64,000 nt of DNA. Source: Pelagibacterium sp. (GTDB lineage Bacteria; Pseudomonadota; Alphaproteobacteria; Rhizobiales; Devosiaceae). The notes beneath the pieces are model-generated. The model did not search any database. It saw only the letters and a list, made by a program, of their open reading frames with translations, and was not told where the DNA came from. Below, piece by piece: positions 5,342 through 62,939 of this stretch (position 1 is the stretch's first letter; each line of letters starts with the position of its first letter). The translations under genes and the position numbers were made by a program. The stretch lies in assembly GCF_965249125.1 (NCBI RefSeq), contig NZ_OZ252217.1, positions 235,736 through 299,735 of the forward strand. Direction: 5' to 3'.

Positions 5342-5379
5342 TCATTGTCGGTCCAATCTGGCTGCATGGGAGTATCTAT

Positions 5380-7017: not shown

Positions 7018-7043
7018 TACCAGCCTTCACGAGGATAGATATC

Positions 7044-7967: not shown

Positions 7968-7981
7968 CCCGGAGTGCAACA

Positions 7982-8860: not shown

Positions 8861-8885
8861 CCGACCTCAAATGCGCAAACAAGTT

Positions 8886-8916
8886 CGGCCCGCAAGCGTT
8901 GCTTGCGGGCCGTTTT
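8886..8916. terminator. Terminator between convergent operons
   Basis: Perfect 12-bp stem CGGCCCGCAAGC-GTT-GCTTGCGGGCCG followed by TTTT. Confidence 0.85.
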
Positions 8917-8934
8917 CAGTTCACTTTGGAAGAG

Positions 8935-9597: not shown

Positions 9598-9676
9598 TTG
9601 AGTCTCCTTGGACATGACGAGCAGCACTCCCGCCTGGAGGCGGGAACGCTGCCGACTTCAAGAGGTGGTGAGTGGC

Positions 9677-10378
9677 TCAGAACCGCAGTTTGAGACCGCG
9701 ATTTTCATAGCTGCTCCGTGCTCGTGAACTCGATAACAGCTCGATGAACTTGCGCGCTCCGTCGCGATTGTCTGCTTGCGAAAAGAGGGCGGCCGAGAAA
9801 TCGGTGGTCTGTTGGCAATCGGGAGGGAGGGGACCAGCTATTGTTACCCCCTCCACCGCGCGCAGTTCGCTCATTTGCTGGATAGCGATGGCGGCCCGCC
9901 CCGATGCGGCCTGCTCGGCCGTCAGGCCCGCGGGAATGACCATGGCCTTGCTGCGCACAGCATCACCAATACCGAGGCGATCGATAAGGGATTCAAAATA
10001 GATCCCACTTGCGCCCGCCCGCGAGTAGCAGAGGTTCGGAACCGACAGCAGGAGCGCGACCAGATCATCGGCGTCACGCAGCGGAGGCGTGTCCATTCCC
10101 GGAGCGATTGCAATGCCAAACTCAGCCTGAACAAGCGGTAGGATCGAGTCCGGCTCGACAATTCCGCGCTCGGCAAGCTTGGAAATGGAATTGTCGATGG
10201 CAAATATCCCGTCGGCGGTTTCTCCAGCCTCGATGCGGTCCATCAGTTTGGCAGTCGGATCCCAGATGATCTCAGGGTGCTCCTCGGCACCGGGCAACAG
10301 ATCCTCTTTGACTGCCTGCAAGATAACCAGCGCGCACATGAACCTGGTGGCTGCGGGACCGACCGTTTTAGCCGCCAT
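9677..10378 (-). CDS. ModA-like periplasmic-binding-fold protein (orphan)
   Basis: YSRAGASGIYF, AIQQMSEL, GPLPPDCQQTTDFSAA typical of ModA-like SBPs; no adjacent permease. Confidence 0.75.
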   Translation of the reverse strand: MAAKTVGPAATRFMCALVILQAVKEDLLPGAEEHPEIIWDPTAKLMDRIEAGETADGIFAIDNSISKLAERGIVEPDSILPLVQAEFGIAIAPGMDTPPLRDADDLVALLLSVPNLCYSRAGASGIYFESLIDRLGIGDAVRSKAMVIPAGLTAEQAASGRAAIAIQQMSELRAVEGVTIAGPLPPDCQQTTDFSAALFSQADNRDGARKFIELLSSSRARSSYENRGLKLRF

Positions 10379-10379
10379 T

Positions 10380-11060
10380 CTAGGTGTACTCCACGGTATA
10401 TGGCGATGACGCTATCTTGTCTTCGATCCACTTGCGGTCCACCGTGCCATTTCTCACGCGGTCTCGCTGTGCGTTTTCCCCCGCCAGACGCTTATGTGCA
10501 TCAGGGTAGATCGCTTCAACCTGCTCAAAGGGAATGCAAATGACTCCGTCGTCGTCCCCCAGGATCAAATCGCCGGGTTGAACGGCCATAACGCCCACCG
10601 CGATAGGGACATTGACATGACCCGGGCCGCTCTGAAACGGTCCGCGCAGGGTGATCCCTGCTGCAAAGACAGGAAACGGATGGTTGCGGACATGGCCGGA
10701 GTCGCGGATGGCTCCGTTGATGACCACCCCGGCGAGCCCGCGAGTTTCCGCATGGGTCAGCATCATTTCGCCCATGATGGCGTTGTCGAGGGCACCACCG
10801 GCGTCCACCACAATCACGTCGCCGGGCTGTGCCAGATCGATGGCTCGGTGGACAAAAAGGTTGTCGCCTGGACGGGTGGTGACCGTATAAGCGGGGCCAG
10901 CGAGGACTGTGCCACCCGCATGCATTGGGCGGATGGTCGCGGGTGCCGCCAATATGCGCGCCATGCAATCACCGACGACCGCCGTGGGTATGTCGCGGTA
11001 TTTGGCGACATGGTCAGCCGAAACGCGACGCTGGGGCTGGTTTATCTTGAGGGCGTACAT
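10380..11060 (-). CDS. RraA/HMG-aldolase (4-hydroxy-4-methyl-2-oxoglutarate aldolase-like) family protein
   Basis: AGPAYTV, PGDNL, GDVIVVDAGG, AIMGEMM, GAIRD, PGDLILGDDDGV. Confidence 0.85.
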   Translation of the reverse strand: MYALKINQPQRRVSADHVAKYRDIPTAVVGDCMARILAAPATIRPMHAGGTVLAGPAYTVTTRPGDNLFVHRAIDLAQPGDVIVVDAGGALDNAIMGEMMLTHAETRGLAGVVINGAIRDSGHVRNHPFPVFAAGITLRGPFQSGPGHVNVPIAVGVMAVQPGDLILGDDDGVICIPFEQVEAIYPDAHKRLAGENAQRDRVRNGTVDRKWIEDKIASSPYTVEYT

Positions 11061-11131
11061 AGGGTGCTCCAAAAAAGTCTCTCTTACCTCTGCTATCCGA
11101 GCGAGAAAGGGAGAAAAAATACAGATTCCTG

Positions 11132-11146
11132 AGTATCAACCATAAA
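11132..11146. promoter_or_regulatory. Possible LysR binding box (T-N11-A)
   Basis: ATA-N9-TAT in the short divergent intergenic region upstream of the LysR gene. Confidence 0.35.
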
Positions 11147-11150
11147 AATC

Positions 11151-12116
11151 TTGTATATGGGTAGCATGCGTGGATCCCTCGACATCAGGCGGCTGCGATA
11201 CTTCTTGGCCACAGCGGAAACTGGGTCCATTTCGGCTGCGGCCCGGGCGTTGCATACTTCCCAGCCGGCACTGAGCTATCATATGGCCGAGCTCGAGCGT
11301 CTGACGGGCCATGTGCTGCTCTTGCGAGACCGCAGTGGGGTGTCGCTGACAGAGGCGGGAAGGTTGCTGCGCACGCATGCACGTCTCATCCTTGACCAGC
11401 TCGATTTGGCCGAAACTCAACTGGACGCGCTCGAACGGACCGGAGGGAGTCCCTTCGGCCGCGTGCGCATCGCCATCATCTCATCGCTCTCGGCGCGTCT
11501 CATACCGATGCTTGTTGAGCGGGTCCGCGCCGAAATGCCTGACGTGACCCTCCAGCTCGTGGAGGCGGGAACCAATGACATCACGGCTCGACTCGATCGT
11601 GGAGACGTCGACATGGCGGTCTATCTGGCAGCTGATCGCTCACGGTCCGAGCAACAGCTGGCCAGTGAGCAGCTCTATTTTCTCAATTTGGCGGATGATG
11701 AGAACAGATCTGGCAAGCCGTTGAATCTGATGGATCTCGGCTGGCAGCGCCTCATATTGCCAGCCGAGGGCAATCCTTTGCGCGATTTCGTGCAAGCCAG
11801 GGCGCGACAGCATGGCCTTCGTCTGGATGTGGTGCTCGAAGTGGATGGTCTCAATTCGCGTCTGACGGCGGTGGCGAGCGGGGTGGGAGGGACAATCGTT
11901 GGCGCGCAGGGAGTGAGCCAAGACGATCTCGGAACCGTCTACGCTATCCGCGAGATTGTCGAGCCTCGACTTTTCAGACCGATATTTCTTGGGGTCCGCG
12001 AGGACCTTGATCCGTATTTGCAGCGCCAGCTGGGCGGGCTATTGCGGGATTGCCTGCTCAAACTCAGTCTTGATCTTCCTACGGAGAGTGGTCAGTGCTC
12101 CAATCCTGTGATCTAA
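11151..12116 (+). CDS. LysR-family transcriptional regulator
   Basis: N-terminal HTH (LRYFLATAETGSISAAARALHTSQPALS), divergent from the RraA operon; start may be 11166. Confidence 0.9.
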   Translation: MYMGSMRGSLDIRRLRYFLATAETGSISAAARALHTSQPALSYHMAELERLTGHVLLLRDRSGVSLTEAGRLLRTHARLILDQLDLAETQLDALERTGGSPFGRVRIAIISSLSARLIPMLVERVRAEMPDVTLQLVEAGTNDITARLDRGDVDMAVYLAADRSRSEQQLASEQLYFLNLADDENRSGKPLNLMDLGWQRLILPAEGNPLRDFVQARARQHGLRLDVVLEVDGLNSRLTAVASGVGGTIVGAQGVSQDDLGTVYAIREIVEPRLFRPIFLGVREDLDPYLQRQLGGLLRDCLLKLSLDLPTESGQCSNPVI

Positions 12117-13361: not shown

Positions 13362-13449
13362 GATCGACAACGGATTTCCAAAGTTGAGCCTTCGGGTTTG
13401 TTCGGCCCTGCCTTTTATTTCATAAGCAGCCGAGACGTTCTGGCCACAA

Positions 13450-13550
13450 ACGGTGTGACAGCTTATTGGTAATTTCGATCCGATTGCCGACGGGCAGCTT
13501 TCGGCCCCTTTGTTGTCTCTCATCCGAACTGACAGCAACTGGCGCCAGGG
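13450..13550. repeat. Cluster of degenerate palindromic junction repeats
   Basis: 24-mers GCCGACGGGCAGCTTTCGGCCCCT (13486) and CCGAACTGACAGCAACTGGCGCCA (13524) match the units at 26516, 26657, 53344, 56177 and 62227. Confidence 0.65.
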
Positions 13551-13601
13551 AGTGGCCGCCCAAGGCCGATTACATTTGCTTGAAGCTCTGTTCACATATG
13601 C

Positions 13602-13958
13602 CTATCGTGCAATTGCCGTGACCTGTATTTCGACACGCAACGCTGGATCGGCAAGCTTTGCCTCAACGCATACGCGGGCAGGGGCGTGCTCGGGAACGAT
13701 CCAGCTGTCCCAGACTTTGTTCATCTCGTTATAATCCGAGATATCTGCCAGCCAGATGGTTGCCGAGATCATGTTTGACTTGTCACATCCCGCCTCAGCG
13801 AGAACGTCATCGATTGCTTCAAGGGTCTGCGCAGTTTGAGTCGCAACGTCGAGGGAGTTTTCACGAGCAACTTGACCGGCCAGAACGATGATATCGGAAG
13901 CGGAAGAATATCGCACAGCTTGGCTCATGCGCGATCCCGGTCTTATTCTTTTTACCAT
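13602..13958 (-). CDS. Rid (YjgF/YER057c/UK114) family protein, YoaB-like
   Basis: RMSQAV, LAGQV, QTAQTLEAID, WDSW...PARVCVEAKLA, VEIQVTA. Confidence 0.9.
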   Translation of the reverse strand: MVKRIRPGSRMSQAVRYSSASDIIVLAGQVARENSLDVATQTAQTLEAIDDVLAEAGCDKSNMISATIWLADISDYNEMNKVWDSWIVPEHAPARVCVEAKLADPALRVEIQVTAIAR

Positions 13959-13990
13959 ATGAGCTCTCCATTTTTTGTAGGTCGAGGAAC

Positions 13991-14617
13991 TTAGCCCCTT
14001 AGCGGTGCGACAACCCTTGAGCAGATCCAGAGCACTTCGGCATCATCGTCTGAAGCTTTGAGCAAGGCATGGCCCATCGTGCTGTCAAAATAGACGCTAT
14101 CGCCAGCAAAGAGTCGGGTGGGTGCGTAGAACTGGGTGTGCAGTTCGACCTCCCCGAACAGGACATAGACAAACTCCTCCCCTGCGTGCGACAGCATCTC
14201 GGGAAAGCTGGCAATGTCGTTGGCCTTGATCGTGGCGCGTAACGGCACAAACTGCTTGTTGGCAAGATCGGTACACAGCATCTGATAATCGTACTGATCT
14301 GTCGAATGGGCGATGCCTTCACCTTTTCGTGTAACGGTTCTGCGCCCCCCCACCGAGGTCGTCTGCCGCCTGGAAAACAAGTCTGCCACATCGACATCGA
14401 GCCCCTCGCTCAGGCTCAGAATCGTATCGTAGGTCGGCGACATCTGGCCGTTTTCGATCTTGGAAAGCGTTGAGGGCGCCAACTGGCAAAGCCGCGCGAG
14501 CTCGTTGAGCGTAAAACCACGCGCCTGTCGCATGAGCCGCAATGTTTCGGCTATTGATGAGTTGGGATTTCGCGCCGAACGCAACGCGATCGAGTGTGCA
14601 GCACCTTTGTTCATCAA
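13991..14617 (-). CDS. XRE-family regulator with C-terminal cupin domain
   Basis: HTH (TLNELARLCQLAPSTLSKIENG) plus cupin (HAGEEFVYVL, GDSVYFDS..GH). Confidence 0.9.
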   Translation of the reverse strand: MMNKGAAHSIALRSARNPNSSIAETLRLMRQARGFTLNELARLCQLAPSTLSKIENGQMSPTYDTILSLSEGLDVDVADLFSRRQTTSVGGRRTVTRKGEGIAHSTDQYDYQMLCTDLANKQFVPLRATIKANDIASFPEMLSHAGEEFVYVLFGEVELHTQFYAPTRLFAGDSVYFDSTMGHALLKASDDDAEVLWICSRVVAPLRG

Positions 14618-14644
14618 CAGCGACCAGTCTTTGTTTGCAAGCGA

Positions 14645-15655
14645 TCAAGCTTGTGCCATTGCTTGGAGCGTCGCAAGGTTGTCCTTGGTAATATAGATGC
14701 CGTTTTCAAGAGCTTTCTTGCGGGCACTGTTGCGCCGATCGCCGGGAAGTCGGGAGACCTCGGCCCCCATCATCTTTTCAACCAAATTGGCCGCACGATC
14801 ACCAAACCCCGTGGTTCCTCCGCGGGCGGGATCAATCAGCAGTATGAACTGGCCAGTGTGAGGGGTTTGTGCTCCGGCATATTGGGACCAGTCGAACTCG
14901 AACGAGAAGTTTCCGCCCGTCAAGGCTGCACCCAGGAGCTCAATCATCATCGAAATCGAGGAGCCCTTGTGACCTCCAAAGGTCAACAGCGCTCCTCCGT
15001 TCAAGACCGCTTGAGGATCGGTGGTGGGCGCGCCGCTGGCGTCGACGCCAGAGTGCTCGGGCAGGGCCTTGCCGGCGCGTGCAGCCATTTGCACGTCGCC
15101 ATTGGACATAGCGGAAGTGGCCAGATCGAAAACCAGGGGATTGCTGGCGCCCCGGACGGGTGCTGCAAATGCAATCGGGTTGGTCCCAAAAAGGGGACTG
15201 CGACCATCAAAGGGCACGGTACAGGCAAAGCTGTTGACTGCTGACAGCGCCACGAGACCCTCACGCGCGAAGGGCTCTACATCTGGCCACAATGCACTCA
15301 GATGGTGCGAATTGCGAATAGCCAGAACGCAGACGCCTGTATCGCGCGCCTTTTCGATCGCAAGGCGTCGACCAGCCGCCAAGGCAACCTGGGCAAACCC
15401 GTTCTCGGCATCGATCCGACAAAACGATGGGGCGCTGTCCTCGATGATCGGCACTGCAGCTCCATTAACCCAGCCGCTTCGCAGCGAATCAATATACCCT
15501 TTCATTCGGAAAATGCCGTGGCTGTGCGACCCGTCCCGCTCGCACATGGCGCAGTTCTCGGCCAGGATCGCAGCAGCGTCTTCACGTACGCCGTTCCTCA
15601 CGAAGATGGCCTTCAACAGGGCTATGAGGTCTGGGTAGGCGACAGCTGACTGCAA
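14645..15655 (-). CDS. dpkA: Ldh_2-family oxidoreductase, Delta1-piperideine/pyrroline-2-carboxylate reductase-like
   Basis: ERDGSHSHGIFR, NSHHLSALWPDVEPFA, FGTNPIAF, FDLATS, GGHKGS and FSFEFDWS closely follow DpkA as recalled. Confidence 0.8.
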   Translation of the reverse strand: MQSAVAYPDLIALLKAIFVRNGVREDAAAILAENCAMCERDGSHSHGIFRMKGYIDSLRSGWVNGAAVPIIEDSAPSFCRIDAENGFAQVALAAGRRLAIEKARDTGVCVLAIRNSHHLSALWPDVEPFAREGLVALSAVNSFACTVPFDGRSPLFGTNPIAFAAPVRGASNPLVFDLATSAMSNGDVQMAARAGKALPEHSGVDASGAPTTDPQAVLNGGALLTFGGHKGSSISMMIELLGAALTGGNFSFEFDWSQYAGAQTPHTGQFILLIDPARGGTTGFGDRAANLVEKMMGAEVSRLPGDRRNSARKKALENGIYITKDNLATLQAMAQA

Positions 15656-15841
15656 GGGGCGAGCTCCTCAAACAATAGGCGCGTTTTTCCGATAAGAAAC
15701 GCTATATCCCGAAACCATGAGCCGACGCAAGTGCGATTGCAGGTGCGGTTCCACGGCGTAACTGGAACAGAAATGCCTGATATTTTATGCGCTTTGGCGC
15801 CAAGGACGGCACAGGCGGCCCCAGAATTTCCCTAGATCGAA

Positions 15842-15885
15842 TTGACAGGGGGTGCAGAGCATGTACTATCGGAAACATCGTTTCC
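15842..15885 (+). promoter_or_regulatory. Sigma70-like promoter with adjacent palindromic operator
   Basis: TTGACA (15842) -16 nt- TACTAT (15864), then the perfect palindrome GGAAAC-ATC-GTTTCC (15871-15885); candidate site for the XRE regulator. Confidence 0.6.
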
Positions 15886-15976
15886 TTTAGGCGCGCTCTT
15901 CGAGGGGCGTTGAGAGCGCCCCACGCAGAAACGCGTGAAATCCATCTTGACGCCCGCAATCGAAAGGGAAATTCGA

Positions 15977-17563
15977 ATGCGTATCGGAAACAGGATGAAC
16001 AAGCCGCTCGCGGCGGCGTTGATGGCCGGCATTGCCGGATTGGCCGGACCCGTCCTCGCCCAGAACTCTGAATTGGTGGTCAACAGTGCTGTGGCGCCGA
16101 GCACGCTCGACCCTGCATGGGCTTGCGGCCTTCAGGAGATCAGCTTTCTTCAGAATTTTTACGTTCGGCTCGTCCAGCACGGCACCGCAGAGGGTCCTGA
16201 AGGTACCCGCGTTGTCGACTATTCCAGCATCGAGCCCTATCTCGCCGATTCCTGGGAGGTGAGCGAGGATGGTTTGACCTACACCTTCTACCTCAAGGAG
16301 GGTTTCACATTCGAAAGCGGCAATCCCGTGGACGCCGAGGCGGTTCGCTATTCCTTCCAGCGTGTCCTCGACATGGCCGGCTGCGGCCGGTTTTTCTTAA
16401 CCGATGGACACATCGATCCTGTCATCTTTGACTCTATTGAAGCGGTGGACCCGCTGACGGTCGTCATCACGCTCAATAAGCCCAACGGCAATATGCTGGG
16501 CGATCTTGCAACTCATGCAGCCTCAATCGTTGATCCTTCGATCATTGAAGCCAATGGTGGCGTCGTGCCGGGGCAGCCCAATGAGTTCATGGCTGCAAAT
16601 GTGACCGAATCCGGTCCCTTCCTGCTCGAATCCTATTCTGCAAATCAGAGCGCCCGGATGGTTGCCAATCCCGAATTTGCGGGAGAGGCCCCAGCCTCGG
16701 ATGCGATCAGTGTGAACTGGATCACCGCGGCACCCACGCTCTTGCTACAGGCGCGCACAGGTCAAGCCGACATCACCTTCGGTCTTGCAAAGCAGGCGGT
16801 GAGCACCATGGGTAACAATCCGGGCACTCGTGTCATTGCTTATACGAACCCCTTTGTGCAGCAGATGATGTTGCCTAACACCAAGGCGCCCTGGGACAAT
16901 GTGTTGTTCCGTGAAGCGGTAGCCCACGCCGTTCCTTACGAGGATATCGTCGAGCGTGTCGCTTATGGGTATGGCACACTCTATTATGGGCCCATCCCCC
17001 CAAGCCTTCCCGGCTTTAATGCGGAGCTGAGCCAGCCGGTCCCCTTCAACCTCGACCGAGCTCGCCAATTGATCGCCGAAATCGGCATCGAAACTCCCGT
17101 CGACATCGAGGTGATGATTCAGGAGGGCGATGCGACCCAGCAGCAGCTGGCCACGATATTGCAGAGCACTTGGACCGAGCTGGGCATCAATCTCAATATC
17201 CGCGTCGCTCCGGCAGCCGAGTTCCAGGACCTCTCCCAGAGCCATCAGGTTCAATCGCTGATGCGTCTTGATGGCCCGGGCGTGTTCGAAGTCGGGTACT
17301 ACTGGGGCTATGACGCTGTCTGCGACAATCCCAACAATCTCACCGAGTATTGCAACCCCGAGGTCGATGCACTGGTCGAACAGTTGCGCGCGTCTTCCGA
17401 TGAAGCCGAGCGTCAGCAGATCATGGATGACGTCACCGAGATATGGCGCTCGGAATTCCCAAAGATCCTCTTCTTTGAAGATCAGCCGGTTGTGGTGCTC
17501 AGCGATGCGGTGAGTGAGTTCACCTTCTCCCCGCTTCCCGATTACCGCTACTGGGCAAAATAG
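15977..17563 (+). CDS. Family-5 ABC substrate-binding protein
   Basis: Signal peptide, LADSWEVSEDGLTYTFYLK, FESGNPVDAEAVRYSF; RBS AAAGGG before 15977. Confidence 0.9.
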   Translation: MRIGNRMNKPLAAALMAGIAGLAGPVLAQNSELVVNSAVAPSTLDPAWACGLQEISFLQNFYVRLVQHGTAEGPEGTRVVDYSSIEPYLADSWEVSEDGLTYTFYLKEGFTFESGNPVDAEAVRYSFQRVLDMAGCGRFFLTDGHIDPVIFDSIEAVDPLTVVITLNKPNGNMLGDLATHAASIVDPSIIEANGGVVPGQPNEFMAANVTESGPFLLESYSANQSARMVANPEFAGEAPASDAISVNWITAAPTLLLQARTGQADITFGLAKQAVSTMGNNPGTRVIAYTNPFVQQMMLPNTKAPWDNVLFREAVAHAVPYEDIVERVAYGYGTLYYGPIPPSLPGFNAELSQPVPFNLDRARQLIAEIGIETPVDIEVMIQEGDATQQQLATILQSTWTELGINLNIRVAPAAEFQDLSQSHQVQSLMRLDGPGVFEVGYYWGYDAVCDNPNNLTEYCNPEVDALVEQLRASSDEAERQQIMDDVTEIWRSEFPKILFFEDQPVVVLSDAVSEFTFSPLPDYRYWAK

Positions 17564-17584
17564 ACTTTCCAGGAGAAAGAACGA

Positions 17585-19603
17585 ATGGCTACGCGAATTG
17601 GTGTCGATATTGGCGGCACGTTCACAGATCTCGTCTATTTCGACGAGCGGACCGGCAAGACGGTGGAGGGCAAGGTTCCCACCGTGCCTTCCGCTCCCGA
17701 AGAAGGCGTGGTCAACGCGATCACACAGCATGTACCCCAAGACATCATCAAGGACGCCGAGTTCTTTCTCCACGGCACAACGGTTGGTCTCAATGCTCTT
17801 TTGGAGCGTCGGGGCGCCAAGGTTGGACTGATCACCACAACAGGTTTCCGCGACGTGCTTGAAATCCGTCGCGGCGACCGGGCCGAGATGTACAATCTGT
17901 TTTGGAAGCAGACCGAGCCTTTGGTTCCGCGTCGGCTGCGGCTTGAAGTGGATGGACGGGTGCTCGGCAATGGCAGTGAATACCGGCCCCTCGATGAGGA
18001 AAGCGTTCGCGCTGCCACAAAAAAGCTCATCGCCGAGGGCGTAGATGCTATCGCTGTCAGCTTGATCAATGCCTATGCCAATCCCGATCATGAACTGGCG
18101 GTTGAAGCCATATTGCGCAACGAAGATTTTGAGGGAGGCATCTCACTTTCCCACAAAATCTCGGGCGAATATCGCGAGTATGAGCGCACCTCGACGACGT
18201 GCATCGATGCTTTCGTGCGGGGCCGGATGTCGAATTATCTTCGGCGGCTAGACGGGCGCCTTCGCGAACTTGGGTTCAACGGCATATCCCTTATTACCCG
18301 GTCCGGCTCTGGATCGATGACGTTCGCAGAGGCCGAAGATCGACCCTTTGAAACGATCATGTCGGGGCCTGTAGGGGGCGCCCAGGGCGCCAGCGAATTG
18401 GCAAAGCTGCTCGGGATCAAGGCGCTTGTTACAGCCGATGTTGGCGGAACCAGCTTTGATACCGCGCTCGTGATCGATGGGCAGCCTCAGGTTCTGTTTG
18501 AAGGGGTGATCGACAACATGCCGATCCAGAGCCCATGGGTCGATGTGCGATCCATCGGGTCGGGCGGCGGTTCGATCGCCCATATCGATCCGGGCGGACT
18601 GATGCGCGTTGGCCCCCGGTCAGCAGGGGCTGTGCCCGGCCCGGCCTGTTACGGCAAAGGCGGGACAGAGCCAGCCATGACCGATGCCGCAGCTTGGCTG
18701 GGGATGCTTGGCCCGGGCGACCTTGCGTCCGGCATTCACCTTGACATCGACAAAGCGCGTCAAGCGCTGGAAGCGGTGGGCAGCCACATCGATCAGGATG
18801 TTGAGTCCACAGCAGCAGGCGTCATGCGGATATCTTCGGCTGCGATGGCCAATGCCATGCGGGAGATTTCTCTCGATCAAGGTCTCGACCCCAGGACCAT
18901 CACACTGCTTCCATTTGGTGGTGCCGGTCCGCTCATGGGCACGCTGCTGGCCGACGAGCTTGAGATGAACCACGTCATCATTCCTCCCCTTGCCGGCAAT
19001 TTTTCCGCATGGGGTTTGCTGGGCGCCGATATGGTCCAGTCAACGGCCAGAACGCGGCTGCTTGATTTCGTTCCCGGCGTACTCGAGGAGGTCAACGCCG
19101 TTCTGGGCGAGCTGTTTGCCACGCTCAAGGAGCGCAGCACCGCCCATGAGGACGCTGTACAGTCAGCGCGCTTGGACCTCCGTTATAAGGGACAAGAGCA
19201 TACCCTTACGGTGGAAGTTGATGTGACGGGCGGCAAGATCACCGAGCCCGAGCCAGTTATTCTCGAGCGATTTATCTCTGAATATGGGCGCACATTCGGG
19301 GCAACGATGAACCAGGACGTCGAGCTGGTGTCGGTTCGCGCCAGCACAACGGTTCTTCTGCCACGGCGAGAGCTCAGCTATACGCCCAAACGCTCGGAAG
19401 GCGACAGCGACCGCACCATGGAGGTTTATTCCTTCGAGTCAAAGGCGCGCCTGCCGTTCAGGATCATACCGCGCAGCATAATATCGGGGCGGATCAGCGG
19501 CCCGGCCATCATCACCGAAGACACAACGACAACCTATGTCGATGTTCAATGGACAATCTCGAGCGGCAAGGCCGGAGAGATCATTTTGGAGCGGACACAC
19601 TAA
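17585..19603 (+). CDS. Hydantoinase/oxoprolinase subunit A (ATP-dependent lactamase alpha)
   Basis: GVDIGGTFTD, HGTTVGLNALLERRG, SGPVGG, DVGGTSFD, IGSGGGSIA, GPRSAGAVPGPACYG. Confidence 0.9.
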   Translation: MATRIGVDIGGTFTDLVYFDERTGKTVEGKVPTVPSAPEEGVVNAITQHVPQDIIKDAEFFLHGTTVGLNALLERRGAKVGLITTTGFRDVLEIRRGDRAEMYNLFWKQTEPLVPRRLRLEVDGRVLGNGSEYRPLDEESVRAATKKLIAEGVDAIAVSLINAYANPDHELAVEAILRNEDFEGGISLSHKISGEYREYERTSTTCIDAFVRGRMSNYLRRLDGRLRELGFNGISLITRSGSGSMTFAEAEDRPFETIMSGPVGGAQGASELAKLLGIKALVTADVGGTSFDTALVIDGQPQVLFEGVIDNMPIQSPWVDVRSIGSGGGSIAHIDPGGLMRVGPRSAGAVPGPACYGKGGTEPAMTDAAAWLGMLGPGDLASGIHLDIDKARQALEAVGSHIDQDVESTAAGVMRISSAAMANAMREISLDQGLDPRTITLLPFGGAGPLMGTLLADELEMNHVIIPPLAGNFSAWGLLGADMVQSTARTRLLDFVPGVLEEVNAVLGELFATLKERSTAHEDAVQSARLDLRYKGQEHTLTVEVDVTGGKITEPEPVILERFISEYGRTFGATMNQDVELVSVRASTTVLLPRRELSYTPKRSEGDSDRTMEVYSFESKARLPFRIIPRSIISGRISGPAIITEDTTTTYVDVQWTISSGKAGEIILERTH

Positions 19604-19604
19604 T

Positions 19605-21329
19605 ATGGTCAACAGACACGACCCCGTCGTTCACAACGCAGGCATGTTCGGTCGCAAAACGGAAGCGAAAGCCGATCCCATCACGACTGAAGTGATCCGA
19701 CATGCGCTCAATTCCGCCGCCAACCAGATGAAGCGGGCGCTCATACGGACCTCGTTTTCGCCTATCATCTATGAGGTGCTGGATTTCGCGGTTGCAATTT
19801 ACGACACGGAGATTCGGCTGCTGTCGCAGGCTCCGTCCCTGCCCATGTTCATGGGCACGCTATCCTTCTGCATTTCCGAGGCTGTAAAGGCCAATGGTGG
19901 ACCAGAGACGCTCAATCCCGGGGATGCTTTGATTTACAACTGGCCATTCGGAACAGGCTCGCATCCCCAGGACATGGTCATCATCATGCCGGTGTTCCAC
20001 AATGATGGGGAACTGATCGGATATACCGCGATCAAGGGTCATTGGCTCGATATTGGCGCCAAGGACCCCTATTGCACCGACACGACTGATGTCTTTCAGG
20101 AAGGGGTGATCTTTCCGGGGGTCAAGATCTACAAGCAGAACGTCCTTAATGAGGACGTCTTCCGAATGATCATGGCCAATACACGGGTCCCCCACATGGT
20201 CCGGGGCGATCTGGACGCTCAGGTCACGGCGTGCCGGGTGGGCGTTAAGTCGCTGCTTGAGGTGGTCGACAGATTCGGCCTCGACACCTACCGTTCGGCC
20301 ATCGACGACATGTTCGATCATGGTGAGCGCATCGTTCGGTCTTACTTCGAAAAGATTCCCGATGGCCGCTATGTCGGCAAGGGCGAGATGGACAACAACG
20401 GCGTCACCAAGGACCGGATCCCGTTCGAGATCGTGCTTGAGGTTAGCGGATCAGAGGTAACACTCGACTTTTCGGGCGTCCCTGATGAACAGGTGGGGCC
20501 TACAAATTCTCCGCTTCCGACCACGATCTCGGCGAGCCGAGTGGCGATAACCATGCTGGCTGGATATGGTGAGGCGCCTCACGAGGGACATTTTCGACCC
20601 CTCAAGGTGATCACCCGCCCTGGTTCGATGTTCGATCCACTGCCTCCCGCGCCCTCCTTTATCTACGGCTGGCCTGGTCTGCAGTCTATCGAAGTGATCT
20701 ACAATGCTGTCGCCAATGCGCTACCCAAAGCTGTTCCTGCGCAGTCTGGCGGATGTATTTGTTCTCTCGTGGCTTGGGGCCAGCGTGAAGAAACTCGGCA
20801 GCCCTGGGCTGACGGCACCCCGCTGCCGACTGGACAGGGGGCTTGGCATGGCGGCGATGGCGGGACAATGCTGCACATTGCTGAATCGGCCACCCGCTTT
20901 ACTCCAGCCGAAGTGTGGGAGCAGCGCAACCCTTGGATTATCGAGCAGTTGGCCCTTGCCGAGGACTCGGTGGGGCCGGGTAAATGGCGCGGTGGGCCCG
21001 GGCTTAATCTCGATATCCGGATGACCGAAGACACGCTCATTACCACAGTCTTCGACCGCTCACTAAATGCCCCTTGGGGACTTGAACAGGGCGGGGAAGC
21101 GCGACCGAACAACTGTTATGCGCATATGCCGGACGGTGAGGTGCATTCAATCGCAAAGTCCACCCATTTCCACATGCCAAAAGACGCTGTGCTCAAAATG
21201 AAGACGGGCGGCGGTGGCGGCTACGGCAATCCTAAGGACAGGCCGGTGGAAATGGTCGAGCGTGATCTGGAAGACGGTTACATCACCGAGGCTTTTGCTC
21301 GCAAACATTATCCCCACGCCTTTGCCTAA
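19605..21329 (+). CDS. Hydantoinase B/oxoprolinase subunit
   Basis: TSFSPIIYEVLDF, HPQD, GHWLDIG, QEGVIFP, DSVGPGKWRGG, TGGGGGYGNP. Confidence 0.9.
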   Translation: MVNRHDPVVHNAGMFGRKTEAKADPITTEVIRHALNSAANQMKRALIRTSFSPIIYEVLDFAVAIYDTEIRLLSQAPSLPMFMGTLSFCISEAVKANGGPETLNPGDALIYNWPFGTGSHPQDMVIIMPVFHNDGELIGYTAIKGHWLDIGAKDPYCTDTTDVFQEGVIFPGVKIYKQNVLNEDVFRMIMANTRVPHMVRGDLDAQVTACRVGVKSLLEVVDRFGLDTYRSAIDDMFDHGERIVRSYFEKIPDGRYVGKGEMDNNGVTKDRIPFEIVLEVSGSEVTLDFSGVPDEQVGPTNSPLPTTISASRVAITMLAGYGEAPHEGHFRPLKVITRPGSMFDPLPPAPSFIYGWPGLQSIEVIYNAVANALPKAVPAQSGGCICSLVAWGQREETRQPWADGTPLPTGQGAWHGGDGGTMLHIAESATRFTPAEVWEQRNPWIIEQLALAEDSVGPGKWRGGPGLNLDIRMTEDTLITTVFDRSLNAPWGLEQGGEARPNNCYAHMPDGEVHSIAKSTHFHMPKDAVLKMKTGGGGGYGNPKDRPVEMVERDLEDGYITEAFARKHYPHAFA

Positions 21330-21394
21330 GCCTTTGACCGGTGACGCGGTTTTCCCTCCGCGTCACCACCTCATATCCGACAAAAAAGAGGTTT

Positions 21395-22246
21395 GTGCTG
21401 GTGAGACGCATTTTTGCTCATTTGGCCCGTGATCATGAGTTGCTGTTGGGCGCCTTCCTCTTTGGCGTCATCATTTTTCTTGCCGTTTTTGGACGTCTGA
21501 TCTGGCCGGTCGACCCCTTGCGGGTTGACGTCCTCAACTCGCTCATGCCGCCCAGTCTCGCCCATCCGATGGGGACCGACGATGTGGGGCGAGACGTCCT
21601 GGCGAGATTCATACAAGGCGCACAAGTCTCGATCGGTGTCGCCATCGGCGTCACTATTGCCGGAACCCTGATTGGTGGCACCCTGGGATTGGTGGCCGGC
21701 CTTGTCGGAGGCTGGGTTGATGCCGTTGTCTCACGAGCAATGGACGCCATCCTCGCCTTTCCGCCCCTGATACTTGCGATGGCCGTGGCTATTGGTTTGG
21801 GTCCGGGCATTCTGTCGGCGGCAATCGGCGTTATTCTGGCGGCTATTCCCTGGTATTACAGGCTCCTGCGCAGCGAGGTTCTGCGCCTGCGGACACTAAT
21901 GTATGTCGAATCCGCTCGGGCACTTGGAGCCTCCAATTTGCGATTGATTCGGTTGCACATCCTGCCGCAGACCACGTCGACCATCTTCATACAGGCCTCC
22001 TCGGTTTTCAGCTTCTCGATCCTCACACTGGCGGCATTGGGGTTTGTTGGCTTGGGCATTCAGCCCCCCATCCCTGAATGGGGAACAATGATCACCGAAG
22101 GTCTCGCTTACGCGCTGACCGGCCAATGGTGGCTCGGGGTATTTCCCGGTCTTGGCATTTTTGCGCTGGCTGTATCGGCAAATCTCATAGCGGACCGGTT
22201 GCGCGACATCTATGACCCGAAGTCCGGCGCGCAGCTGTCGATATAG
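21395..22246 (+). CDS. ABC permease (OppC family)
   Basis: HPMGTDDVGRDVLAR, YVESARALGAS, LGIQPPIPEWG; GTG start after AAGAGG. Confidence 0.88.
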   Translation: MLVRRIFAHLARDHELLLGAFLFGVIIFLAVFGRLIWPVDPLRVDVLNSLMPPSLAHPMGTDDVGRDVLARFIQGAQVSIGVAIGVTIAGTLIGGTLGLVAGLVGGWVDAVVSRAMDAILAFPPLILAMAVAIGLGPGILSAAIGVILAAIPWYYRLLRSEVLRLRTLMYVESARALGASNLRLIRLHILPQTTSTIFIQASSVFSFSILTLAALGFVGLGIQPPIPEWGTMITEGLAYALTGQWWLGVFPGLGIFALAVSANLIADRLRDIYDPKSGAQLSI

Positions 22247-22255
22247 GAGCTGGCC

Positions 22256-23257
22256 ATGATGAACTTTATCCTAGCCCGCATCGGTTCGGCCATCGTGACC
22301 ATATTTGGAGCGTCAGTGCTGGCCTTTGTGGTTCTGCGAGCCGTTCCGACCAATCCCGCAAGATTGATCGCCGGGCCGTTCGCTAATGACGAGGTGATAG
22401 CGCAGGTGACCGCGAACCTGGGTCTGGACCAGCCTCTGCCGGTGCAATATTTCGACTACATTGTCTCGTTCTTTGGCGGCGATTGGGGGTTTTCTTATAG
22501 TGCAGGCCAGCCCGTTCTTTCCCAGATTACTGCCCGCCTGCCTGCGAGTGCGGAGTTGGCGCTGTACGCCTTTCTCTTTGCCTTTATCGGCGCGGTGCTG
22601 ATCACCGTTCTCGTGAGCTTTCTCAAATCCCGCTGGCTGGACCGGCTCTTGCGGGTCATCTCGTTCGTCAGCGTCGGCATTCCGCCCTTTTGGCTGGCTC
22701 TTTTGTTCTTGATGGTGTTTTTCGAGCAGTTGGGATGGTTCCCGGGACCGGTGGGGCGGGGGCCAGCACCTGAGGTCATACCTACGGGCATTTACACGAT
22801 AGATTATCTGCTGGCTGGCGACCTTTCCGGATTTGGAACCGCGTTCTATCACCTGACCTTGCCGGCCTTGGCCTTGGCACTCGGGCCGTTTGGCTATCTT
22901 GTTCGATTGCTGAGGGCCAATTTGCTCGATGTGATCAACGAGCCTTTCGTCACCGTTTTGCACGCCAAAGGTGTTGCGCCGATCTCCGCTCATTTCAGTC
23001 ACATTCTGCCCAACGCGTTCATGCCAACGCTGACGGCGGGAGGGCTCATTCTGGCTCAATTGCTGGGCGGCAGTGTTCTGGTCGAGCGCATCTTCATGTG
23101 GCCCGGCATAGGCACCCTGGTGATCGATGGGATCCTGCGGCAGGACTATGCAGTCGTGCAGGCATTCATCATGCTGAGCGCCATTATCTATATTGGCGTC
23201 AATCTCTTGGTCGACATCTTGTACGGCTATGTCGATCCGCGCGTTCGCAGGAGCTGA
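22256..23257 (+). CDS. ABC permease (OppB family)
   Basis: [44 protein letters not shown]. Confidence 0.9.
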
Positions 23258-23261
23258 GGCC

Positions 23262-24287
23262 ATGGAAAACCTTTCACCCTCGCTACCGCTGCTCGAGATC
23301 TTGGGCCTCAAAACGTCTTTCAAAACCCCTCGCGGTGTTGTGCGCAGTGTTGACGACGTTTCCTTTGTCATTCCAAAGGGCCAGACTCTGGGTGTGGTGG
23401 GCGAGTCAGGGTCTGGAAAGAGCGTGACCTCACTTTCCATCATGCAATTGGTGTCACGAGGAGGCGGCCAGATTGATGACGGCCGCATCGTGCTCAACAA
23501 GCCAGGACAACCCGGTCTGGAGCTTACCTCGCTTGATGAAAAAGCGATGCGCAGGATCCGGGGCAACGACATCGCAATGATCTTTCAAGAGCCCATGACC
23601 AGCCTCGACCCGGTGTGGTCGATCGGTGATCAGATCATTGAGGCGATCCGCCTGCATCAGCAGGTGTCCCGAAAGGAAGCACGCGAAAAAGCAATCGAGA
23701 TGTTGCGGCTCGTGGGCATTCCGGCTCCAGACAGCCGCGTGGATGATTATCCTCATCAGCTCTCGGGCGGAATGCGGCAGAGGGTAATGATTGCAATTGC
23801 GCTCTCGTGCCGTCCATCGTTGTTGATTGCAGACGAGCCAACGACAGCCCTCGATGTGACAATCCAGGCCCAAATACTGGACTTGATCCGACGCTTGCAG
23901 CAAGAAATTGGGATGTCGGTGCTGTTCATCACTCACAATTTGGGGGTGGTGGCCGAAATCGCAGATCGTGTTGCGGTCATGTATGCAGGCCAGGTTGTCG
24001 AAGAAGGGCCAGTCCGCGAGATCTTTTCAAGGCCACGACATCCTTACACTGTGGGACTTCTCAAATCGATACCTGGTGCCGCCCGTGAGAAGGATACAGC
24101 GCCGGCGAGCCGACTTGAGACCATCGGAGGCACACCGCCCAATCCCCTTGAACTGCCCAGTGGCTGCCGGTTTGCCCCGCGTTGTAGTCTTGCCGTTGAT
24201 GCGTGCCGCTCCAGTGTCCCTCCGCTTTTCGACGTCGGGCCCGAGCACGGCGGACGCTGTATCCGCTGGCAGGAGGTGAGCAAATGA
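23262..24287 (+). CDS. ABC ATPase (OppD family)
   Basis: [32 protein letters not shown]-terminal HPYT and GCRFAPRC. Confidence 0.92.
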
Positions 24288-25261
24288 ATACGGCTCCGTT
24301 GCTTGACGTTCGTGCTCTTTTTAAGCGGTTCCCGATCAAGGGATCGCCGTTCTCAAAGGAGAAAAAGGAAGTCCACGCCATTTCGGACGTCAGCTTTACG
24401 ATCAATCGCGGCGAAGTTGTTGGACTTGTGGGCGAATCTGGCTCAGGCAAGACGACGATCGGGCGCACGATCATGCGACTTACTGACCCTACCGAGGGCC
24501 AGATCCTCTTTGACGGCACCGATATTGCGCAAATCTCCCAGCGCGAGATGATGGCGTTTCGGCGCAAGATTCAAATGATCTTCCAGGATCCCTTTGCCAG
24601 CCTCAATCCGCGACGAAAGGTCGGAGAGCTCGTGGCCGAAGGCATGGAAATCCATGGCCTCGGCAACCGCCAGGAGCGGCAGGCGGAGGTGAACAGGCTC
24701 CTTGAGCTCGTCGGACTGCCTGCTGATGCTTCACAGCGACATCCCCACGAATTTTCAGGCGGCCAGCGCCAGCGCATCGGCATTGCTCGGGCTTTAGCCG
24801 TATCGCCGGACTTTATTGTAGCTGACGAACCGGTGTCAGCGCTTGATGTGTCGGTCCAAGCGCAAGTGCTCAATCTGCTGCAGGATCTGAAGGAGCAATT
24901 GGGTCTCACTGTACTCTTCATTGCTCACGACCTTGCAGTTGTTGAACATTTTTGCGACCGCGTCATCGTCATGTACTTGGGCCGCATCATGGAAATAGCT
25001 CCTCGACGCCGCCTCTATGCTGCTCCGCAGCATCCCTATACCGAAGCGCTTCTTTCGGCTGCGCCGGCGCCAGACCCGGATCGCTCCGGTCAACGCATCG
25101 TTCTCGAGGGCGATATCCCGAGCCCGATCAACCCACCATCGGGATGCGTCCAGCGCACCCGTTGCCGGTACGCGATTTCTGATTGCGCCAAGATCGTTCC
25201 CCAGTTGCGCGAAGTTGCACCAGGACACTTCAAGGCCTGTATCCGCGACGATATTTTCTAG
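24284..25261 (+). CDS. ABC ATPase (OppF family)
   Basis: [30 protein letters not shown]; ATGA overlap with the upstream gene. Confidence 0.92.
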
Positions 25262-25271
25262 GATTATTGCC

Positions 25272-26438
25272 ATGCCGATTCTCAATTCGATCATTGATGC
25301 GCATCAGGAAATCACGGCCTGGCGCCGCGATTTTCATGCCCATCCCGAACTTTTGTACGATGTCCATCGAACGGCGGAGAAAGTGGCGGAGCAGCTAGAG
25401 AGTTTTGGCGTCGATGAGGTGGTTACCGGCATTGGCAGGACTGGTGTGGTGGGCGTTATTCGCGGACGCGGCACAGGGCCAACAATCGGGCTGCGGGCAG
25501 ATATGGATGCACTGCCCATCACCGAGAAGAGCTCGGCCTCTTACGCTAGTCAAAATGCGGGCCTGATGCATGCGTGCGGTCACGATGGTCATACGGCCAT
25601 GCTGCTCGGGGCTGCACGATACCTCGCCGAAAACCGAGGTCTTGATAGCGATGTAGTCGTCATTTTTCAGCCCGCAGAAGAAGGTGGTGCGGGCGGTTTG
25701 GCCATGGTGGAGGACGGATTGTTTGAGCGTTTCGGGATTGATGCTGTCTATGGCTTGCACAATTTGCCCGGACTGCCGGAGGGATCATTCGCCACTTGCT
25801 CTGGCGCGATCATGGCCTCTGCAGATGAGTTCGAGATCGAAATTTCTGCGAAAGGTGGTCATGCCGCATGGCCTCACAATACGGTCGACCCGATCCTTGT
25901 AGCCGGGCAAGTGATTACTGCACTCCAATCGATTGTGGCGCGCAATGTGGATCCCCTTGCGTCAGCTGTTGTGTCGGTAACTCAGATGCACTCCGGGTCC
26001 GCTTATAACGTGATACCGTCAGAAGCGACCCTGCGCGGCACGGTCAGAACCCTTGCTCCACGAACACGTGATGTTGTCGAAGAGCGAATGAATGAGATAG
26101 TCACACATATTGCCGCGGGATTTGGAGCCACCGCAAAGCTTAATTTTCGCCGCGGCTATCCCGTCACGGTCAATGATCCGAATCAGGTGGCCTTCGCTTG
26201 CGACGTCGCTGCCAGCATTGTCGGTGAGGAAAAGGTTGAGCGCTTCATGACTCCGATGATGGGCGGCGAAGACTTTGCCTTTATGCTGGAGCGGTGCCCC
26301 GGCTCATATCTGTTCATTGGAAACGGCGACACCAGCGGGCTTCATACCGATGAATACGACTTCAACGACTCCATCATACCAATAGGAGTCAGCTACCTTG
26401 TTGAACTCGCCCGCAGTGCGACCTCTCATAGGAGATAA
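25272..26438 (+). CDS. M20 amidohydrolase (hippurate hydrolase-like)
   Basis: RRDFHAHPEL, LRADMDALP, MHACGHDGH, FQPAEE, GGHAA, GEDFA, LH. Confidence 0.92.
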   Translation: MPILNSIIDAHQEITAWRRDFHAHPELLYDVHRTAEKVAEQLESFGVDEVVTGIGRTGVVGVIRGRGTGPTIGLRADMDALPITEKSSASYASQNAGLMHACGHDGHTAMLLGAARYLAENRGLDSDVVVIFQPAEEGGAGGLAMVEDGLFERFGIDAVYGLHNLPGLPEGSFATCSGAIMASADEFEIEISAKGGHAAWPHNTVDPILVAGQVITALQSIVARNVDPLASAVVSVTQMHSGSAYNVIPSEATLRGTVRTLAPRTRDVVEERMNEIVTHIAAGFGATAKLNFRRGYPVTVNDPNQVAFACDVAASIVGEEKVERFMTPMMGGEDFAFMLERCPGSYLFIGNGDTSGLHTDEYDFNDSIIPIGVSYLVELARSATSHRR

Positions 26439-26479
26439 AGTGCTACGACTTCGTGGTCGACCGTCTGGAACCGGCGTGA

Positions 26480-26700
26480 CGATGAATGGCAGCTTTCTCT
26501 GATTTCACGGCAGCACCGGACTGACCGCTTACGGCTCCCTGCCTGACACACCGAAATATGAACGAATGGCAGGTACGGGGCGGCGACCGGAGCCTGCCGA
26601 AGGGCGACTTTTGGGTCGACAGGCGAACGGCCGCTATTCGCAAATCCCGACCGAAACCCGACAGACAGCTTCCGGCCCCGACTTTGCCGTTCAGCAAGAA
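26480..26700. repeat. Cluster of degenerate palindromic junction repeats
   Basis: Several GAAYGNCMGC-type arms plus 24-mers CCGGACTGACCGCTTACGGCTCCC (26516) and CCCGACAGACAGCTTCCGGCCCCG (26657). Confidence 0.65.
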
Positions 26701-26813
26701 GTTCGGATCGCCCGCGTACTGGAAGGGCAACTTGCCGATACAGATTACCGTAGTTTCGCTGTGATGGCGTGTGAGGAGGCGACGGGAGCTAAGACAATTG
26801 AGAGAGTGATGCG

Positions 26814-53423: not shown

Positions 53424-54056
53424 ATGGGATACTCTCGATATGATGCCGCAGCCCGAGGACGGGCTGCATGGAATGCTGGAAAGACAGTCGGGACCAAACG
53501 CCCTCTTACGCAGAAGCAGATCTGGGCTGTCCGTTTCTTCCTGGATCGGGAGGGCCGGGTTCGAGACCGTGCCCTGTTCGACCTTGCCATCGACAGCAAG
53601 CTTCGCGGCTGCGATCTGGTCAAGATCAAGACTGGCGACCTAGTCACAGGGCCGGAAATTCGAACGCGGGCCATGGTCGTTCAGCAAAAGACCGGGCGGC
53701 CAGTTCAATTCGAACTGACCAGCGATGTGCGTGCCAGCCTGCTCTCATGGCTTGAGAAGCGAGGGGGCAGTGTCAGTGACTATGCCTTTCCGAGTCGTAT
53801 TGACCACGGCAATCACATGAGCACACGGCAGTATGCCCTTCTGGTGGACGAATGGGTCACAGCCATTGGTCTTCGATCCTCAGACTATGGCACGCATTCG
53901 CTGCGAAGAACGAAGGCGGCGATGATATACAAGGCAACCGGAAACCTGCGCGCCATCCAAATTCTGCTCGGCCACACCAAGATCGAGAATACCGTTCGGT
54001 ATCTCGGTGTGGACATCGAGGATGCTTTGCTTCTGGCTGAACGGACCGAAATATGA
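53424..54056 (+). CDS. Small tyrosine recombinase (210 aa), copy 1
   Basis: Catalytic R (KLRGCDL), HxxR (HSLR), LGH and Y (TVRY); no arm-binding N-terminal domain. Confidence 0.92.
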   Translation: MGYSRYDAAARGRAAWNAGKTVGTKRPLTQKQIWAVRFFLDREGRVRDRALFDLAIDSKLRGCDLVKIKTGDLVTGPEIRTRAMVVQQKTGRPVQFELTSDVRASLLSWLEKRGGSVSDYAFPSRIDHGNHMSTRQYALLVDEWVTAIGLRSSDYGTHSLRRTKAAMIYKATGNLRAIQILLGHTKIENTVRYLGVDIEDALLLAERTEI

Positions 54057-62306: not shown

Positions 62307-62939
62307 ATGGGATACTCACGATACGATGCTGCAGCTCGAGGGCGGGCTGCATGGAATGCTGGAAAGACTGTTGGGACCAAGCGCCCTCTAACGCAGAAGC
62401 AGATCTGGGCTATCCAATTCTTTCTGGATCGGGAGTGCCGAGTCCGAGATCGTGCCCTGTTCGATCTTGCGATCGACAGCAAGCTTCGCGGATGCGACTT
62501 GGTGAAAATTAAAACCGGAGACCTGGTGACAGGGCCGGAAATTCGAACGCGGGCTACCGTGGTGCAACAGAAGACCGGGCGTCCTGTCCAATTCGAATTG
62601 ACCGGCGATGTGCGCGCCAGCCTACTGGTGTGGCTCGAGAGACGCGGCGGCACAGTCGAAGATCATGCTTTCCCAAGCCGGATCGACCACTCGCACCACA
62701 TGAGCACGCGCCAGTATGCCCGCCTGGTGGATGAATGGGTCACAGCGATCGGGCTTCGATCATCGGACTATGGCACACACTCGCTCCGCAGAACCAAAGC
62801 GGCCATGATTTACAAGGCCACCGGCAATCTGCGCGCCATTCAGATATTGCTCGGCCACACCAAGATCGAAAACACGGTGCGGTATCTCGGTGTGGACATC
62901 GAGGACGCGTTACTTCTTGCTGAACGGACCGAAATTTGA
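62307..62939 (+). CDS. Small tyrosine recombinase (210 aa), copy 2
   Basis: Same catalytic residues; 13 aa differences from copy 1 by eye count. Confidence 0.92.

Follow-up and report, generated by a model that had tools for sequence, protein, structure and literature searches.

The window analysed here, 64,000 nucleotides of a Pelagibacterium genome (NZ_OZ252217.1, 235,736–299,735), holds a catabolic gene cluster flanked by short repeats of a kind that also stands beside two distant tyrosine recombinase genes, rec1 and rec2. We describe the repeat (named el), the recombinases and the segments between el sites, and weigh the proposal of a first-pass annotation that the cluster is a large cassette mobilised in trans. 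Taken as a whole, the window is a patchwork in which transport and catabolic modules, led by regulators, are mixed with insertion sequence (IS) elements, and IS3, IS66 and rve-type transposases abound.

The conserved cluster begins with a transcription regulator combining Pfam HTH_3 and cupin domains (13991..14614, − strand), followed on the same strand by an oxidoreductase of the Ldh_2 family (malate/L-lactate dehydrogenase type 2; 14645..15655; Pfam Ldh_2, 4.7e-98). On the + strand come a family-5 periplasmic solute-binding protein of the peptide/opine ABC type (15995..17563; SBP_bac_5), hydantoinase/oxoprolinase A (17585–19603; Hydant_A_N and Hydantoinase_A) and B (19605–21329; Hydantoinase_B), both likewise annotated in plasmid relatives, two ABC permeases (21401–22246 and 22256–23257; BPD_transp_1), two ABC ATPases (~23262–24287 and ~24203–25261; ABC_tran and oligo_HPY on called genes, with the open reading frame (ORF) table) and an M20 amidohydrolase, the last conserved gene (25272..26438; Peptidase_M20 and M20_dimer). 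The second ATPase is predicted from its position, from ABC-signature-like repeats and from a 331-residue Walker-motif ORF at the same place in a congener (G005), comparison with which also set the M20 start. A self-regulated system for the uptake and degradation of a cyclic amide or hydantoin-like compound is a plausible reading of this gene content. Next to the regulator lies a gene of the Rid/YjgF family (13602..13958, − strand; Ribonuc_L-PSP, 1.5e-27). The repeats do sit just outside the Rid and M20 genes, as first described, but Rid belongs to the bracketed segment and not to the conserved cluster, and is beside the cluster in no relative.

The first-pass annotation had singled out four 24-mers (at 13486, 13524, 26516 and 26657) as matching repeats next to the recombinases. 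The sequences are present, but as the right (3′) part of a longer, two-fold symmetric element of ~70 nt, el, whose consensus is ATGGGGTCGnnnGCnGAAnGGCnGCTTTCC-N14-CCnAAAGCGGACnGTCCGCTnnCGGCCCC (alignment A1). We delimited el by aligning the 130 nt upstream of 77 recombinase genes from other genera. From 51 sites of other genera (0 from this genome) we made a sequence-only profile, R1, and ran it unfiltered on the window; its E-values are rough. R1 recovers the copies at 26516 and 26657 and, weakly, that at 13486, but gives no score to the copy at 13524.

Six copies are found in the window, all on the + strand, and the next independent match has ~8 bits. Site A (13447–13508; 18.7 bits, E 7.6e-5 at window scale), which is degenerate and holds the 24-mer at 13486, lies to the left of the cluster. 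To its right are B′ (26478–26535; 32.6 bits, E 3.5e-9), nearly intact and holding the 24-mer at 26516, and the full-length B (26613–26679; 51.5 bits, E 4e-15), which holds that at 26657 and is the top-scoring copy in the window; genome-wide HMM E-values for these two are 7e-7 and 7e-11. Site D (53314–53366; 31.6 bits; left part degenerate) is upstream of rec1, site E (56131–56196; 50.0 bits) lies between the rec1 unit and a LuxR-led operon, and site C (62181–62249; 50.1 bits) is upstream of rec2. Comparing the copy at 26603–26679 with the rec2 upstream region gives a match over ~80 nt, not 24. The bracketing sites occupy two gaps, the left (13362–13601) between a 105-residue ORF and the Rid stop codon, the right (26439–26813) following the M20 stop codon; site A is 94 nt beyond the Rid stop (13602), and the right-hand pair begins 40 nt after the M20 stop (26438).

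Chance does not reproduce this pattern. The degenerate 22-mer of the first-pass annotation has 4 matches in the window, all on the + strand, against 0.02 expected from shuffles, and at ≤3 mismatches it has none in the 3.86-Mb genome outside the window. Nor does the profile hit at a similar rate by chance, the possibility that had been raised against the proposal: there is a clear gap between the sites and the ~8-bit match that follows them.

Site A is the weakest copy. By HMM it reaches 13.7 bits, with a genome-wide E of 0.14, a score that 1 in 100 dinucleotide-shuffled windows equals somewhere on either strand; its R1 score of 18.7 bits compares with 32–51 for the others, and the neighbouring copy at 13524 fails entirely. 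Were 13447–13508 a chance or unrelated match, the cluster would be bounded by el on its right side only. We consider this improbable, since site A ranks sixth among the window matches (window E 7.6e-5), 10 bits above the one that follows, is intergenic, lies on the same strand as the other sites and only those 94 nt from where the first gene of the segment ends, and retains nearly all invariant positions in its right half. Read against the columns of A1, that half keeps all but one of the invariant or near-invariant positions. As far as sequence can tell, the segment 13447–26535 is delimited by genuine members of the site family of the recombinases, which agrees with the original assignment: the bracketing sites match R1 and are co-oriented with those of rec1 and rec2.

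Two further features of the window copies deserve mention. The starts of B′ and B (26478–26679) are separated by only 135 nt and the two enclose nothing; they form an ‘empty’ unit of a sort that a simple cycle of integration and excision does not produce. Site C looks like a mosaic when counted by hand: over its left 43 nt it shares ~84% identity with the site at genome 316893–316961 and ~67% with site B, and over its right 27 nt ~82% with site B and ~60% with the 316.9-kb site. The join of the two halves could mark a crossover, but such small numbers carry no significance.

The recombinase genes rec1 (53424..54056, + strand) and rec2 (62307..62939, + strand) each encode a 210-residue tyrosine recombinase consisting of the catalytic domain only (Pfam Phage_integrase); motifs LRGCD, HSLRR and GHT...RY are present in rec1. 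The two are 94% identical and are the only copies in the genome; both genes are intact and strongly conserved. Relatives at 82–97% identity number more than 500 in Rhizobiales and Sphingomonadales, the closest of them in Pelagibacterium. The NCBIfam model integrase_gron (TIGR02249) scores 23.7 bits against a cutoff of 265, the XerC model 53 bits (cutoff 335) and the XerD model 38 bits (cutoff 330); the ‘tyrosine-type DNA invertase’ model gives a weak full-length match (residues 25–196 of 210, E 3.5e-4) with 20 bits against a cutoff of 222. In most of the 77 loci from other genera el precedes the recombinase gene, an architecture repeated in more than 50 other genomes, and a second, co-oriented el copy follows 1–5 kb downstream of the gene. 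A 13-6-13 palindrome overlies the recombinase ribosome-binding site, ~45 nt beyond el. We read el as very probably the signature site of this 210-residue recombinase that lacks a core-binding domain and has been widely transferred among Alphaproteobacteria. The literature that we searched, a tyrosine-recombinase classification paper included, contains no description of the recombinase/el system, an absence that is not proof of its being undescribed.

A site so closely tied to a gene might also serve it in other ways, as an operator, a REP-like structural repeat or a terminator that simply accompanies the recombinase. The consensus has two 6-3-6 palindromes (AGCGGA-N3-TCCGCT) typical of dimeric regulators, and its spacer of ~16 nt between large arms is longer than classical tyrosine-recombinase cores. 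A role unconnected with recombination nonetheless seems very unlikely to us: el is low in copy number (1–24 per genome), its copies are clustered, co-oriented and correlated with the recombinase, they lie at the boundaries of cargo that differs between genomes, and they have neither terminator features nor any sign of a conserved fold.

That last point rests on several comparisons. Among the 51 sites, paired cells make up 65%, against 65% in column shuffles, the real and shuffled proportions being equal under both a long-hairpin and a local-hairpin model, and there is no excess of compensatory changes and no covariation. Five window copies treated as single-stranded DNA fold no better than shuffles (z −0.8 to +0.9), and Rfam holds no match for el. 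An attC-like folded site or an RNA structure is ruled out by these results. A terminator role is ruled out likewise, as no terminator-like feature overlaps the sites; the only such matches in 13.3–13.7 kb, at 13394–13408 and 13553–13568, are both outside site A, and none occurs at B′/B. With only ~14 copies, clustered and tied to the recombinase, el is not a genome-wide REP-like repeat. The orphan copies were also considered as 5′ remnants of decayed recombinase genes, and this too is ruled out, there being no protein or leader similarity downstream of them; they are solo sites. The symmetry in the consensus is as expected if el is of the double-strand, protein-binding type.

In this genome the ~14 el copies lie at 249–326 kb (eight copies), at 2.07 Mb and at 2.55–2.59 Mb. 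The eight are all on the + strand (8/8) and span 77 kb with both recombinase genes inside the array, so the first-pass estimate of at least 50 kb of the window is correct. They divide the 77 kb into segments of 0.1–27 kb. From A to B′, 13.0 kb hold the Rid gene and the hydantoinase/ABC/M20 cluster; the empty unit from B′ to B measures 0.13 kb; 26.6 kb separate B from D; the 2.8 kb from D to E contain rec1, an ABM-domain gene and a LysR gene; and the 6.0 kb from E to C carry the LuxR-led operon. Segments of 19 kb and then 9 kb follow site C beyond the window. Spacing in co-oriented runs is 2–16 kb in the genus and 1–5 kb in other genera, and a 13-kb unit is therefore typical.

The number of el sites tracks the presence of the recombinase. 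Among 17 congeners, ten with the recombinase hold 3–24 sites (mean ~12), and the seven without it hold 1–6, with one outlier at 15. A draft assembly with 15 sites (G009, 50 contigs), which has a co-oriented run on contig 30 and no recombinase match at E 1e-30 or better, represents either an array that lost its enzyme or a gene that fell into an assembly gap. Thirteen genomes from other genera of the order have no el site, including some whose recombinases are only 48–55% identical. A second type of right half, in which CCTCCCGCG(A/C)AGCGGGT replaces GCGGACnGTCCGC, is found both upstream of recombinase genes and in orphan sites (L012:9131–9175, L044:63, L050:9991, L068:11468 and L087:810). R1 and the HMM miss this type, and the site counts are therefore lower bounds.

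The window forms part of a low-GC stretch (55–59% against 61%) of ~110 kb, which starts near two tRNA-Val genes (genome 218779–219140) and reaches ~328 kb. The last el site (genome 325941–325998) stands at its right edge, adjoining core liv-type ABC genes. By eye, with no Pfam scan of them, no large integrase was recognised among the ORFs adjoining the tRNA-Val genes. No break in composition marks the el sites; the entire region has 55–59% GC.

The cluster was followed through one genome per species, these being the present genome (G000) and the congeners that carry it (G005, G011, G013, G015 and G016). Its regulator-to-M20 block (window 13991–26402) has ~76% nucleotide identity in the five congeners, in a context that differs in every genome compared. 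In G016 the cluster is again part of a recombinase array and again lies between el-family sites, with other neighbours. That array has, in succession, an el site, a segment 82–83% identical to the LuxR unit of the window (56.4–62.2 kb) and a disrupted el site, in which an IS110-family element follows the left two-thirds; 135 nt further on comes the cluster and, 55 nt beyond it, a variant el (CCTCCCGCGAAGCGGGTCGTCTAATCGGCC), with an IS3 element last. The variant (CCTCCCGCGAAGCGGGT...CGGCC) is a variant right half of el; one Mesorhizobium and one Erythrobacter also have it, at the place of el before their recombinase genes, and two further loci have it as an orphan on the downstream side. Unit order thus differs between G016 and the window, and the orientation of the cluster relative to the sites is equal. 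In two lineages that are not sisters, the M20 end is 40–55 nt from an el-type site, and the arrays make up ~2% of the genome. This proximity is hard to ascribe to chance and points to a link with capture by arrays.

Cargo also recurs in G013, where two arrays share 8.5 kb at 90% identity (L186, reverse complement, 2761–11620; L187, 5044–14663). One array reads el, 6 nt, cargo, 218 nt, el; the other reads el, recombinase, 184 nt, cargo, 133 nt, el. The cargo is between co-oriented sites in both, once with and once without the recombinase, and the right-hand sites of the two arrays are 75% identical to each other.

Our preferred reading is that the 13-kb cluster is a large unit of an integron-like el/recombinase system, served in trans. 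Strand exchange would take place between two co-oriented el sites, catalysed by the products of rec1 and rec2, which are encoded 27–36 kb downstream of the right-hand site. The segment would leave as a circle carrying one site and could re-enter at any other el site; an array would in this way stockpile and reorder operon-sized modules, with no need for an integrase in each. The cluster itself may best be seen as an old, horizontally travelling operon, taken into arrays apparently more than once and not born as a cassette. Present-day excision of its segment is doubtful because the left site has decayed. We give this reading a probability of about one half, a figure held down by breakpoints that can be read at gene ends and by the fact that no excision was seen; the mechanism is an inference throughout.

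Several lines of evidence weigh against exchange at the sites as the way in which the cluster moved. The left boundary is the degenerate site A, with its 18.7 bits, and the Rid gene intervenes between it and the conserved cluster. Neither cluster end has an el site in G005, G011, G013 or G015, and 80 further loci with HyuB relatives in other genera, among them Sinorhizobium, Kaistia and a Rhodobacterales genome at 86–89% protein identity, show no site or recombinase within 10 kb. The close pair G015 and G016 share 12.4 kb at 92% identity (G015:C1:3170146–3182568 and G016:C1:328646–341071), and the homology ends exactly at the regulator stop codon on one side and 2–3 codons before the M20 stop on the other. 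Flanks beyond these points are unrelated, and G015 has nothing that corresponds to the 55 nt before the G016 site. The hyuAB tree pairs G016 with G015 and puts G000 on a long branch of its own, so that the array-resident copies of G000 and G016 are not sisters.

The G013 pair presents the same difficulty. Had there been a simple exchange between sites, the spacer should have moved together with the cargo, and so should the greater part of the downstream site, in the manner of attC; yet the 130–220 nt from the cargo to the next site are not clearly homologous between the two arrays, and homology blocks in general stop at gene ends, 40–220 nt before the downstream site is reached. In G016 a 7.1-kb unit is bounded by el and lies directly upstream of the recombinase; in the present genome and in G013 this unit sits without sites at 3.12 Mb. 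Modules of such size clearly also move in the genus without el sites. At the 3.12-Mb locus the unit is missing from G015 and G016, with a clean junction; the whole insertion relative to these two (genome 3112136–3125624) is 13.5 kb, composed of a 6.4-kb part and the 7.1-kb part, and has no el at its junctions. A paralogue of the 6.4-kb part adjoins the hydantoinase cluster in G013. Finally, neither a recombination product nor an empty site nor any polymorphism came to light, public assemblies being of the identical strain only.

The outcome for the first-pass proposal is accordingly mixed. Homology had been expected to end within the repeat clusters if the module were a cassette, and to run through them if it were not. 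Neither was seen: the homology shared with any relative gives out at the regulator stop, near 13991, and at the M20 stop, short of the sites. Empty-site alleles, also sought at its suggestion, were absent from the congeners and from the public assemblies compared (the latter of the identical strain only). G002 has homologues of the right-flank genes in another context and no site, in G001 a distance of 12.5 kb separates a site from a homologue of the first window gene, in no synteny, and G015 and G013 lack the array flanks of G016. All public contigs with the Rid gene or the 105-residue ORF are 100% identical to the window, and a look-up of a 182-residue ORF to the right of site B gave no match. 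The idea of a large cassette mobilised in trans gains from the site family, the co-orientation and the recurrence in G016, but finds no evidence of movement at the sites.

Something does move the hydantoinase block with gene-exact ends, and it may be a process other than el recombination. Real el sites could be ends or scars left by other insertions, and the island a landing zone in which the cluster arrives, and from which it leaves, by homologous or illegitimate recombination after transfer, or by IS activity. Such passive bracketing fits the genomes, the majority, in which the block ends at terminal stop codons amid unrelated flanks without sites; it fits the IS110/IS5 and IS3 elements on either side of the cluster in G016, the 7.1-kb unit that is el-bounded there and site-free elsewhere, and a window full of transposases. 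It does not readily account for two non-sister lineages having their M20 end 40–55 nt away from an el-type site when arrays occupy ~2% of the genome, nor for the orientation of cargo to sites, which is kept in G000 and G016 and in three copies of the G013/G016 cargo; the regular spacing and co-orientation of the sites, moreover, fit units and not random scars. We regard it as possible, though somewhat doubtful.

The cluster is also found beyond the genus. The hyuAB genes are ~78% identical in nucleotides to the copy of Sinorhizobium medicae USDA1037 and ~79% to the congener copies, and in another order, Rhodobacterales, copies reach 86–89% protein identity (the loci compared being in Sinorhizobium, Sinisalibacter and Kaistia). 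Such values suggest transfer of the cluster across orders.

Returning to the cassette reading, the nearest system in logic would be the integron, sedentary chromosomal integrons and CALINs included. Both combine a tyrosine recombinase with a co-oriented array of short sites that separate cargo, have a site beside the recombinase gene, and contain cargo units without a recombinase of their own, which would depend on one acting in trans. Most particulars differ. The el recombinase has 210 residues and no core-binding domain, and its score with the integron-integrase model falls far below the cutoff; its gene points into the array. The el sites are conserved in sequence, symmetric and of the double-strand type, whereas attC sites are folded single strands of variable sequence. 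A cassette in an integron is usually one promoterless ORF, with Pc driving its expression; units here are multi-gene segments of 2–27 kb with regulators of their own and genes on both strands. Integrons have been reported absent from Alphaproteobacteria (PMC4889954).

For double-strand sites that flank multi-gene modules served in trans, the closest parallel lies in the pdif modules of Acinetobacter plasmids, with 28-bp 11-6-11 XerC/XerD sites in alternating orientation (PMC6449649, PMC13141974). There, too, modules of one to several genes are bracketed by short double-strand sites and shuffled between replicons by a recombinase encoded elsewhere. The enzymes in that case are the housekeeping Xer pair of the host, as against a single dedicated mini-recombinase here, and el is longer (~70 bp), has another consensus, keeps to one orientation and is chromosomal.

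As integrase-less DNA between att-type direct repeats, the segments would most resemble cis-mobilizable elements (CIMEs) and islands grown by tandem accretion at att sites (reviewed in PMC5704250), in which the integrase of a related element can excise such DNA and arrays arise from repeated integration at the same site. The sites in those cases, however, consist of 3′ ends of tRNA genes or housekeeping genes, their large ICE/IME integrases have arm-binding domains, and an array comprises two or three elements; the present array has eight or more sites, a minimal recombinase and, in the window, no conjugation genes that we could see. In size and domain content the recombinase is like FimB/FimE-type invertases, which have ~200 residues and are essentially the catalytic domain alone, but invertases use inverted repeats around one promoter segment, and el sites are direct repeats over tens of kilobases.

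REP/BIME sequences with their RAYT enzymes are likewise short, intergenic, palindrome-containing repeats tied to one enzyme gene. REPs are scattered through a genome in hundreds of copies, fold into stable hairpins and are linked to an HUH (Y1) transposase, unlike el with its ≤24 island-clustered copies, no hairpin stabilisation and a tyrosine recombinase. There is presumably also some likeness between el and the rhizobial RIME repeats.

New here are the operon-sized units in Pelagibacterium, the presence of a complete catabolic regulon in such arrays in two species, and breakpoints at odds with simple site-to-site exchange. More tentatively, the whole may form an Alphaproteobacterial gene-capture platform, in which a mini-recombinase and ~70-bp double-strand sites handle regulated operons (2–27 kb) as trans-served cassettes, the 13-kb regulon having been captured independently in the two species; we think this possible, but would not yet favour it. 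If the sites are active, they would constitute a cassette system for complete catabolic regulons and not for single promoterless genes, which would help to explain how marine and soil Alphaproteobacteria assemble islands for substrate-specific uptake and degradation, and a very small recombinase with a defined ~70-bp site might become a tool. If the array is only a landing zone, the hydantoinase cluster is still a free-floating block with stop-codon breakpoints, beside which el arrays repeatedly end up. For annotation, the el profile delimits units in islands of this kind.

The disrupted el site of G016 shows a site as a target in its turn. The IS110-family element, whose transposase starts MQIITLGLDLAKRIFQVHAVD, lies inside el just after ...GCCGGAACCAGA (G016:C1:326646–326800; L011:14647–14800) and is itself interrupted by an IS5-type element. 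Members of the IS110 family are known to target palindromic sites, and el may for this reason be a preferred IS110 target.

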